From a virus (taxonomy: Duplodnaviria > Heunggongvirae > Uroviricota > Caudoviricetes), in the IMG/VR virus record IMGVR_UViG_2563367002_000001: a DNA stretch of 38,579 bases; one strand, written 5' to 3'. The notes beneath the pieces were generated by a model that did no database searches, was not told the DNA's origin, and saw only the letters and a list, made by a program, of their open reading frames with translations. Within the stretch, counting starts at the first letter, position 1; each line of letters starts with the position of its first letter. A program made the position numbers and the translations under genes. Below are positions 15,140-16,709 of the stretch, piece by piece.

Positions 15140-15619
15140 CTTATTATCCTGCATTGTTAAAAACGGCAGAATCCTATGTGACAACAATTAAACGATAGTT
15201 AAATGGATTGATGAAAATTAAAACTACACAGGTGGGCTCAGACTATTGGAGGAAGTTGGGGACACTCAGAATCCTGTGGAATGAAATAAACCGGTCTATC
15301 CGTCCATTACCCTTTTAGCTGCGCTGTATCGTCGCCGTATTCCCGCATTAACCATGACCGTAGCCCGACGGGGAATTCCTTCTGCGTGAGTGTGCGGGAA
15401 TAATTAAAAACGATGCACACCGGGTTTTTACCGCGTTAATGATTCGCGGGTTTATCCCGGTGCGATGGTGGAAGAAACAGGAAGCTGTATTACAGAAAGT
15501 GCTACTACTGTATCCCGATGCGATGTATGTAATGTGAGTCAGATAATGGCACAGGATGTGGTGATGTGGCAGTCTGGAACACAGGATATATTGTCAGAAT
15601 AAGACCCGTAGGAATAAAA

Positions 15620-15946
15620 ATGAAAAGACGCCTTTTACTACTTTTTCTGTTATCTGTCCTGGCAGTGGGATGCTCGCAGCAAAAAGCTGATGAGCCCCGG
15701 CAATTAGTGACGGTGTATCCACGATATCCGGAATATGCTGCAGCAAATTATATCAAGGGGCTGGTTGAGGTTAAGTTCGATATTGGTGCTGATGGGACTG
15801 TGACACGGATCGTTTTTCTCCGCTCAGAGCCTCATAATTTGTTTCGTGATGAAGTGGTGAAGGCCATGGCGAAATGGCGATTTGAAAAGAATCGCCCCTG
15901 TCAGGGAGTGAAGAGACAATTTATCTTTACGCCGTCACGTCCTTGA
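15620..15946 (+). CDS. Putative lipoprotein with possible TonB C-terminal-like domain, about 108 aa
   Basis: Signal peptide with lipobox (MKRRLLLLFLLSVLAVGCS). The mature region YPRYPEYAAANYIKGLVEVKFDIGADGTVT resembles a TonB C-terminal fold, from memory. The track start at 15566 is upstream of the signal peptide. Confidence 0.55.
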   Translation: MKRRLLLLFLLSVLAVGCSQQKADEPRQLVTVYPRYPEYAAANYIKGLVEVKFDIGADGTVTRIVFLRSEPHNLFRDEVVKAMAKWRFEKNRPCQGVKRQFIFTPSRP

Positions 15947-16068
15947 TGCTTCCAGGTAGAGAGGGGCTGGAAGCAGGAGAAAAATGAAAGAGCCAGCGGT
16001 TATATTTTTGTCATGGCTGACGAGGAATGATGGAAGAAGGCGTTGTATGCCACACAACGCCTCACTGT

Positions 16069-16248
16069 TCATTTCTTCTTTTTCTCTGGTGGAACCCGAT
16101 GAATAAGAGTTGCACTGGTTTCCGATGAGATGGCGATATACTCGGGCAAAGTATGCTGGCAGTTTTCCAACTGGTCAAAAATACCTGCTCTCGTCTGTTG
16201 CAATGCCTGCAGCATGCGGCGGCAATGCGCCTTGCTTTTACTAACCAT
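16069..16248 (-). CDS. Small hypothetical protein, 59 aa, with poly-Lys C-terminus
   Basis: ATG at 16248 preceded by a strong RBS AGGAAGGA. The longer track ORF (to 16422) overlaps the upstream gene and is less likely. Confidence 0.35.
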   Translation of the reverse strand: MVSKSKAHCRRMLQALQQTRAGIFDQLENCQHTLPEYIAISSETSATLIHRVPPEKKKK

Positions 16249-16309
16249 CTTTCCTTCCTCTATCAGTCGCTGCGTGAACTCATCATGGAATACCAGGTAA
16301 ATGCGGATG

Positions 16310-16561
16310 TTATCGGTTTTGGCTACGCAGCATAGTACAAAACGGACAGGTGCATCCCGGGACGGGGGAGGCGTCACATGTCCCTGTGATGGTTGTTCCG
16401 GGTAATGTACTGTGTGGGGCATAAAAATGTCCGATAATTTTACTTTCTACCGCAGTTAGTTGATTCGTTGGTCCTGGTAGCACATTGGGCGAGGATTTAA
16501 ATGCCAGGCAACTGAAGGATGATGTCGCAAGGGAGATAGCGAGAATATTTCTGATTTTCAT
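16310..16561 (-). CDS. Small secreted Cys-rich hypothetical protein, 83 aa
   Basis: ATG at 16561 with GAGG upstream. Predicted signal peptide MKIRNILAISLATSSFSCLA. Six Cys in the C-terminal 25 residues (CDASPVPGCTCPFC). Confidence 0.4.
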   Translation of the reverse strand: MKIRNILAISLATSSFSCLAFKSSPNVLPGPTNQLTAVESKIIGHFYAPHSTLPGTTITGTCDASPVPGCTCPFCTMLRSQNR

Positions 16562-16709
16562 TTGATGATGCCTCTGTGTGAAATGACGGTAAACGACGCA
16601 CTTGTGCCGGCACATAATAGCAAGCACCATAATAGATCAGATTCGATTCTTGCTGTAAGTGATAATTATTCTCGTTTTCGGGTCCTTTCCGTCGATCCAA
16701 CAGGTTACG

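Follow-up and report, generated by a model that had tools for sequence, protein, structure and literature searches.

Accessory genes between bor and cos in a phage 21-type prophage: a conserved family of small proteins predicted to be exported, and a lipoprotein form of the TonB C-terminal domain

What does a lambdoid prophage carry between bor and cos, and do the genes found there act together? The question is raised by a 38,579-nt stretch of tailed-phage DNA (IMG/VR record IMGVR_UViG_2563367002_000001), here called the window, whose positions are used throughout. A preliminary description of its interval 15190-16700 had proposed that a lipoprotein, an 83-amino-acid (aa) cysteine-rich protein and a 59-aa protein form a single exclusion, envelope-modifying or toxin-like module. 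We recovered all three open reading frames (ORFs) in the places and on the strands it gave, together with a hairpin and a palindrome:

15620-15946, plus strand: lipoprotein of 108 aa, signal MKRRLLLLFLLSVLAVGC/S (here and below the slash marks the end of a signal), then a TonB C-terminal domain
16037-16063, both strands: hairpin between the convergent units, -18.6 and -18.5 kcal/mol, z = -3.1 and -3.3
16069-16248, minus strand: 59-aa ORF (MVSKSK...PPEKKKK), whose ATG is closely preceded by GGAAGGAAAG, a strong Shine-Dalgarno sequence
16310-16561, minus strand: 83-aa precursor of a predicted exported protein of ~63 aa, with cross-genus homologues and dN/dS evidence
16660-16674: Fur-box-like palindrome TGATAATTATTCTCG, agreeing with TGATAATNATTATCA at 13/15 positions, 6 nt from cosQ

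By its sequence the window is a lambdoid prophage of the phage 21 type, and the interval 15190-16700 is 100% identical to positions 41412-42922 of OL657228.1, the final 1.5 kb of the chromosome in the phage 21 virion. The explanation that we favour, and hold to be somewhat likelier right than wrong, is that we are looking at accessory DNA at the right end of a prophage of this type, in which independent cargo units converge on a shared hairpin; the lipoprotein would act as a Ton-box decoy and the 83-aa protein would take part in the response to zinc starvation.

The 83-aa ORF is unannotated in the phage 21 record and in all five RefSeq records inspected. A protein search returned 83-84-aa homologues, 55-77% identical, from Escherichia, Citrobacter, Klebsiella and Salmonella, and a profile search and a second alignment-based search added members of ~80-85 aa from Serratia, Erwinia, Pantoea, Superficieibacter, Kosakonia, Phytobacter, Enterobacter and Raoultella. 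Across genera the pairwise ratio of non-synonymous to synonymous substitution rates (dN/dS) was 0.09-0.29, with synonymous sites close to saturation, and in a variant of the whole block (locus L033, ~97% identical) 7 of the changes within the gene are synonymous and 3 non-synonymous. These cross-genus homologues and the low dN/dS thus identify the ORF, on comparative grounds, as a real gene of an uncharacterised Enterobacterales family. The preliminary description could not match its proposed module to a known system. For the 83-aa protein no relative was found in Pfam, NCBIfam or PDB, and a literature search on the family returned nothing relevant.

The protein was also described as secreted and bearing six clustered cysteines. 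Export is indeed predicted and the protein is rich in cysteine, but there are five cysteines, of which four are clustered: C18 lies within the signal peptide, whereas C62, C70, C72 and C75 are in the mature part, spaced C62-x7-C70-x-C72-x2-C75 inside GTCDASPVPGCTCPFCTMLRS. The signal, consisting of MKIR, NILAISLATSSFS and C-L-A/F, has the properties of a Sec signal with predicted cleavage by signal peptidase I, and A20 and F21 are at least 90% conserved. The family can be recognised by a signal ending in A-x-A/F (C-L-A/F in the enteric subgroup), a central E..I...FY motif and the C-terminal GTC.A.PV.GC.C[PA]FC[TS]MLR, in which the four cysteines are invariant or nearly so and their spacing is invariant. 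A lipobox at C18 was considered and rejected, since distant homologues have Ala at this position and the A-x-A/F site, which lacks the cysteine, is universal. Cleavage by signal peptidase I would thus leave a periplasmic protein of ~63 aa with an invariant four-cysteine (Cys4) cluster.

Some database entries related to the gene are irregular. Proteins of 128-165 aa (P0004, P0030 and P0038) pass from the 83-aa ORF into the frame of an overlapping 117-aa ORF just past a run of five C at ~16364-16368, and are either sequencing errors or pseudogene alleles. Two 82-aa variants (P0003 and P0006) leave the reading frame and then return to it. Two long low-complexity, eukaryotic-looking proteins of 611-627 aa (P0062 and P0064) contain 4-5 repeats of P[IL]PGCNCPKCT[NE]LR; their GC.C..C..LR motif is that of the C-terminus of the 83-aa family, suggesting a small autonomous motif.

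The surroundings of the gene vary widely between genomes. In other Escherichia prophages it occupies the same cos-adjacent slot, without bor, the TonB_C gene or the 59-aa ORF. In Salmonella it adjoins bor and an omptin gene, and on another Salmonella island TraT. One Citrobacter carries it between fecI and narL, and in Kosakonia and Phytobacter it follows a gene judged from its sequence to be PagP-like. It is divergent from a peptide/nickel-type ABC importer in Serratia and adjoins a ZnuA-family gene in Erwinia. A narrower-alignment search for related loci yielded 6 loci. On a Klebsiella plasmid the gene adjoins CobW and a Fur-family regulator, and in C. koseri it adjoins icd, the attachment gene of phage 21. 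Decayed cos sequences lie just upstream of the gene on this plasmid (L003, ~5760-5900) and on the C. koseri chromosome (L016, ~5860-5900), so these two copies derive from prophage remnants. In related Escherichia prophages we also observed a 44-aa lipoprotein ORF between the 83-aa and DUF3950 genes (L012, 6346-6480, plus strand), which starts with GTG behind a good ribosome-binding site, has the lipobox LLSAC and is not called in the gene table.

The upstream regions of the chromosomal homologues point to zinc. The proteobacterial Zur box has the consensus GAAATGTTATANTATAACATTTC, that is GAAATGTTATA-N-TATAACATTTC (PMC4219657). We scored matches out of 23 positions upstream of the family genes and obtained p values from shuffled sequences:

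Kosakonia: 20/23 at -93, p <=0.002
Phytobacter: 18-19/23 at -93, p <=0.002
Erwinia: 18/23 at -120, p <=0.002
C. koseri: 17/23 at -43, p <=0.002
Serratia: 16/23 at -47, p <=0.002
Citrobacter JGM124: 16/23 at -45, p 0.02
Enterobacter sp.: 15/23 at -102, p 0.05

Chromosomal homologues of five lineages thus carry matches of 16-20/23 that qualify as Zur boxes, and control by Zur is predicted for them. In Kosakonia, Phytobacter and Erwinia the box stands between an upstream gene on the same strand and the family gene, so it can serve only the latter. Phage and island copies have no Zur box; for the copy in the window the best match is 15/23 at -230, and no site with three or fewer mismatches occurs anywhere in the window. 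The 83-aa protein thus most probably belongs to the zinc-starvation response, either binding metal through its Cys4 cluster or acting as a disulfide-stabilised envelope factor. Its earlier portrayal as toxin-like fits poorly, because the homologues are chromosomal, in plant- and soil-associated enterobacteria, and lie behind Zur-box matches.

The phage copy would have lost the Zur box and would now stand beside a Fur-like one, its unit starting, on the minus strand, in the cos-proximal segment that bears the palindrome. TGATAATTATTCTCG is the sole match to TGATAATNATTATCA with two or fewer mismatches in the window. At the homologous position, fixed 6 nt from cosQ, lambda, the K-12 prophage DLP12 and loci L012-L015 have the perfect Fur 7-1-7 box TGATAATNATTATCA:

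L040, 2153-2167 (lambda NC_001416, 48452-48466)
L043, 2295-2309 (K-12 DLP12)
L012, 5866-5880

This box corresponds to the K-12 'nohA' and 'nohB' Fur sites, described as strong (PMC2189734). Of the two, nohB (25.3 bits) is a prediction, whereas nohA (22.3 bits) came out of a Fur titration selection and was shifted by Fur in a gel (PMC2189734). Position is shared between the phages, in that the first leftward gene lies left of cosQ and the palindrome in each, but the cargo differs: lambda and DLP12 have a DUF3950 gene (ylcI) there, and the phage 21 type has the 83-aa gene for a predicted exported protein. From this arrangement we infer that the cos-adjacent slot is a cargo slot under a Fur operator. 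No promoter is established for it; hits in consensus promoter scans were no more frequent than in shuffled sequence, and a candidate hairpin in the 5′ untranslated region of the 83-aa gene was rejected, as it was no better than shuffled sequence (z = 0.03). Putative targets of the box are the leftward cargo, Nu1 or packaging. In lambda itself, the first leftward ORF past cos encodes 64 aa (L040, 1810-2004, minus strand; NC_001416, 48109-48303), looks YlcI/DUF3950-like by eye and has no annotated feature in RefSeq.

The other cargo unit, on the plus strand, encodes the lipoprotein. The fold suspected in the preliminary description was borne out, well above chance, by Pfam TonB_C (PF03544; E = 7.3e-13, 49 bits against a cut-off of 24.6) and by NCBIfam tonB_Cterm TIGR01352 (1.8e-12). 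The protein aligns with residues 150-230 of E. coli TonB in the PDB structures of its C-terminal part (150-239; 1U07, 2GRX with FhuA and 2GSK with BtuB; TonB chains E = 1e-14), a region that includes the YP motif and the strand pairing with the Ton box. Full-length TonB equivalog models score it at 45-69 bits, against cut-offs of 265-448. Both the N-terminal membrane anchor and the proline-rich spacer of TonB are absent, as are its last 9 residues; residues 1-18 are instead a lipoprotein signal (LAVGC/S), and the TonB_C domain starts at about residue 23. The protein is therefore not the housekeeping TonB, an assignment that would have spoken against cargo, and without anchor and spacer it cannot couple to ExbB/ExbD.

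Genomes of five Stx1a/Stx-type E. coli phages (72% identity) and of one Klebsiella phage (41%) encode homologues of 108-122 aa. The lipobox reads LVMGC/T in the Stx-type homologue read closely and LLLGC/S in the Klebsiella one, and in the window, too, a cysteine follows a positively charged, hydrophobic signal, so lipidation is predicted. Between the window copy and the 72% identical Stx-type allele dN/dS is 0.12. As judged from these comparisons, the lipoprotein is under purifying selection and conserved across phages.

In E. coli, residue +2 of a lipoprotein sets its sorting to the outer membrane by the Lol rule; here it is Ser, and sorting to the outer membrane is thus predicted. The protein would be tethered at the periplasmic face of this membrane, where its TonB_C domain may serve as a decoy, filling Ton boxes on TonB-dependent receptors but giving no energy. 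TonB C-terminal fragments in the periplasm inhibit transport by FhuA and FecA. Such a decoy would lower the entry of TonB-dependent phages and colicins, at some cost in iron uptake.

A number of observations weigh against these roles. Because the periplasm is oxidising and cysteine ligands are uncommon there, the 83-aa protein may simply have its cysteines in disulfides. AlphaFold models of this protein (two runs, with 25 and 78 sequences) were of low confidence, with a predicted local distance difference test score of 58-60; no fold or metal site can thus be claimed, and structure-based inference was dropped. The Fur-like box of the window has two mismatches and is weak alone, as 14% of shuffles yield such a match, and the published site was assigned to nohA/nohB rather than to the leftward gene (PMC2189734). 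The window scan gave no convincing sigma-70 promoter for either the 83-aa or the lipoprotein unit. At the positions aligned with Q160 and R166 of E. coli TonB the lipoprotein has Tyr, so Ton-box binding is not assured, and a literature search found no paper on a phage TonB_C lipoprotein. Finally, the Zur regulon also holds a non-zinc protein, PliG (PMC4219657).

An alternative that we regard as improbable, though worth keeping in view, makes the 83-aa protein a disulfide-stabilised envelope or host-interaction factor, directed at serum, antimicrobial peptides or lysozyme, with zinc starvation as the host cue only. Periplasmic cysteines usually form disulfides, which counts in its favour, and the mobile neighbours of the gene are outer-membrane resistance genes: bor/iss, bor with omptin in Salmonella, TraT, and the PagP-like gene in Kosakonia and Phytobacter. 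PliG, already in the Zur regulon of E. coli, is a lysozyme inhibitor (PMC4219657). This alternative has to contend with the zinc-related neighbours in Erwinia and Klebsiella, with the invariant C-x7-C-x-C-x2-C spacing and with the lack of similarity to known inhibitor families.

For the lipoprotein, the alternative to a decoy is a function in the lytic cycle, late expression aiding envelope disruption or sparing progeny from debris, as for T5 Llp. We consider this unlikely. The gene does lie on the late-operon strand directly past the lysis cassette in three distant phages, following the lysis genes in both homologue loci read closely (Lys8385Vzw and the Klebsiella phage), and its family, PHROG 1267, bears a lysis/spanin label. 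However, this label is probably a mis-annotation of a lipoprotein: spanin features are missing, with no C-terminal membrane segment and no Rz partner, and in phage 21 the oppositely oriented bor stands between the lipoprotein gene and Rz.

Far less probable is the single module of the preliminary description. E. coli genomes with one of the pair, the lipoprotein gene in its phage 21 allele or the 83-aa gene, nearly always have the other as well (~1225 against 1232 genomes), and the two units converge on one hairpin. The whole block is present in about 1222-1232 of 5426 complete E. coli genomes (~23%), and nearly all copies share 99% identity or more, which makes recent descent the source of the linkage. 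Among more diverged relatives the parts are found separately. The 83-aa gene occurs without the TonB_C gene or the 59-aa ORF in lambdoid prophages, on Salmonella islands and on the chromosomes of Citrobacter, Kosakonia, Phytobacter, Serratia and Erwinia. The lipoprotein gene is present in 1617 of the 5426 genomes; flanks were read for one Stx-type E. coli phage and for the Klebsiella phage, and neither has the 83-aa gene beside it. The 59-aa ORF, for its part, is an orphan (see below).

No more credible is that the lipoprotein gene is a dead fragment of a captured tonB. Decay would agree with the annotations in phages ev017 and Perceval ('partial tonB-like', 'TonB fragment'), with the missing last 9 residues of TonB and with the 4 synonymous and 4 non-synonymous changes in the L033 variant, but dN/dS against the 72% identical allele is low, and both ORF length and lipobox are conserved down to the 41% identical Klebsiella phage homologue.

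The 59-aa ORF was characterised by its four terminal lysines and its strong Shine-Dalgarno sequence, which both stand; its standing as a gene is doubtful. It is the tail of the 117-aa ORF (16069-16422), which covers the 3′ end of the 83-aa gene in a different frame. Homologues of the 59-aa ORF were limited to near-identical E. coli copies, with none outside the block, and neither it nor the 117-aa ORF gave a Pfam or NCBIfam hit at E <=1 (best tblastn E = 3). Its unique single-nucleotide polymorphisms comprise ~3 synonymous and 6 non-synonymous changes, and one genome has a frameshift. By these comparisons the 59-aa ORF is an orphan without a coding signature, and we lean against a real protein here, while granting it a reasonable chance. 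The preliminary description had itself named poor conservation and absent coding signature as a way in which its small ORFs could fail, which is true of the 59-aa ORF and false of the 83-aa gene. A ribbon-helix-helix/DUF3950 assignment of the 117-aa ORF was plausible by eye and was rejected after null results in Pfam, NCBIfam, BLASTP and tblastn; in particular, BLASTP gave no alignment with the DUF3950 protein of L012. Apparently divergent copies of the 59/117-aa ORF (P0042, P0043 and 165-aa fusions) look like frameshifted, error-prone assemblies and were set aside.

The hairpin at 16037-16063 starts 5 nt past the 59-aa ORF and closes the TonB_C gene on the opposite strand. Its U-tract is weak, so a terminator function is inferred only. 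The arrangement of the 59-aa ORF before the hairpin is compatible with co-transcription with the 83-aa gene.

Phage 21 annotators and the Prokaryotic Genome Annotation Pipeline (PGAP) call plus-strand ORFs instead, at 15465-15602, 15984-16106 and 16153-16335. The last of these (60 aa; PGAP WP_000881610) is antisense to the minus-strand ORFs, and PGAP alternates between the 59-aa ORF, called in one genome, and this antisense ORF, called in others. Of the 10 changes to the 60-aa ORF in the L033 variant, 1 is synonymous and 9 are non-synonymous, 2 of them giving stop codons, and the 40-aa ORF at 15984-16106 has lost its start codon. From these changes the ORFs at 15984-16106 and 16153-16335 are probably annotation artefacts that mask the true minus-strand gene. 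That these two are real and the minus-strand ORFs chance is barely conceivable: the phage 21 record and PGAP do list them, and PHROG 3744 exists for the 60-aa ORF, but the calls are inconsistent between genomes, L033 breaks both frames, and it is the 83-aa ORF that has cross-genus homologues and a low dN/dS.

The wider layout was obtained by projecting the annotated phage 21 record (OL657228.1) onto the window:

13644-14814: S21, R21 and Rz/Rz1, mapped from the phage 21 record
14846-15139, minus strand: bor/iss serum-resistance lipoprotein gene, the left neighbour of the cargo (Pfam Lambda_Bor 1.7e-30)
15140-15428: bor-upstream segment, common to lambda-type phages
16680-16686, plus strand: cosQ, annotated in the phage 21 record
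16710-16721, plus strand: cosN cohesive end, GGGCGGCGACCT
16898: Nu1, in the mapped phage 21 layout

The slot thus lies between bor and cos as first described. The bor/iss gene is named Bor-like in phage 21 and iss in Nissle 1917, and the end of the phage 21 virion chromosome falls at 16709. The whole interval 15190-16700 had been regarded as variable. This holds from about 15430 onwards, whereas the first ~240 nt (15190-15428) belong to the widely shared bor-upstream segment and match ~45 lambda-like phage records at 90-95%; on this alignment the variable cargo starts after ~15430. The promoter of bor is presumably within 15140-15428. At 15300-15420, a block with TTCCCGCA...TGCGGGAA is common to many lambdoid prophages, whether bor is present or not, and recurs at ~6880-7000 of L012 and ~2170-2290 of L041; its folding is not significantly above that of shuffled sequence (z = -1.5), and it has no Rfam match. 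An Rfam scan of 14700-17000 gave sub-threshold noise only.

The cargo is variably present among related phages, and bor and the 83-aa gene run opposite to the late operon. This fits the view of the bor-to-cos cargo as accessory, moron-type genes outside the structural operon, as first suggested; GC content does not set the cargo apart. Carriers of the block include Nissle 1917, the type strain ATCC 11775, NRG 857C and several strains labelled as extraintestinal pathogenic E. coli. Insertion sequences break the block in some strains (L025, NZ_CP173544.1; H1, NZ_CM169486.1): in one strain most of the TonB_C gene has given way to an IS66 element, and in another ISEc52 lies within the interval.

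The closest functional analogy that we propose for the lipoprotein is with T5 Llp and the Cor proteins of phi80 and N15, small phage outer-membrane lipoproteins that block a TonB-dependent receptor from the periplasmic side and thereby keep other phages out (PMC9586334; PMC11436027). They have no sequence relation to it, Pfam and PHROGs giving only TonB_C and phrog_1267, and they target FhuA specifically, whereas its predicted target would be the generic Ton box. The 83-aa gene resembles Bor/Iss-type morons in that it is small, envelope-directed, oriented against the late operon and placed in the same slot, with bor as a neighbour also in Salmonella; it differs in encoding an unrelated protein with a signal of the signal peptidase I type and with chromosomal relatives behind Zur boxes. 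Those relatives, small, predicted to be exported and with Zur matches at -43 to -120, resemble ZinT and PliG of the Zur regulon (PMC4219657). Unlike these, the 83-aa protein is similar to no Pfam, NCBIfam or PDB entry and has a Cys4 cluster. The zinc site of ZinT uses His.

Taken together, the sequence comparisons add three things: a conserved 83-aa gene under selection, with a link to Zur, which the phage 21 and inspected RefSeq records miss; evidence that the annotated antisense ORFs are spurious; and a TonB C-terminal domain in lipoprotein form that is under selection and for which the proposed decoy mechanism can be tested. A bolder version, which we put forward tentatively and think unlikely to hold in full, combines a Ton-box decoy lipoprotein with a new family of Zur-controlled periplasmic Cys4 mini-proteins captured beside a Fur operator. 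If true, the lipoprotein would be a new, receptor-independent prophage exclusion of TonB-dependent phages, colicins and microcins, and host iron limitation would turn on the cos-adjacent cargo.

About one complete E. coli genome in four carries the block, beside iss, and a corrected annotation, with the 83-aa gene in and the antisense ORFs out, would touch the many records that carry it. The TonB-domain lipoprotein is a testable candidate for broad exclusion or colicin tolerance, and the 83-aa family one for a so far unrecognised part of the enterobacterial zinc-starvation response. Judging by the conserved Fur box next to cosQ, iron may regulate this cargo slot in lambdoid phages.

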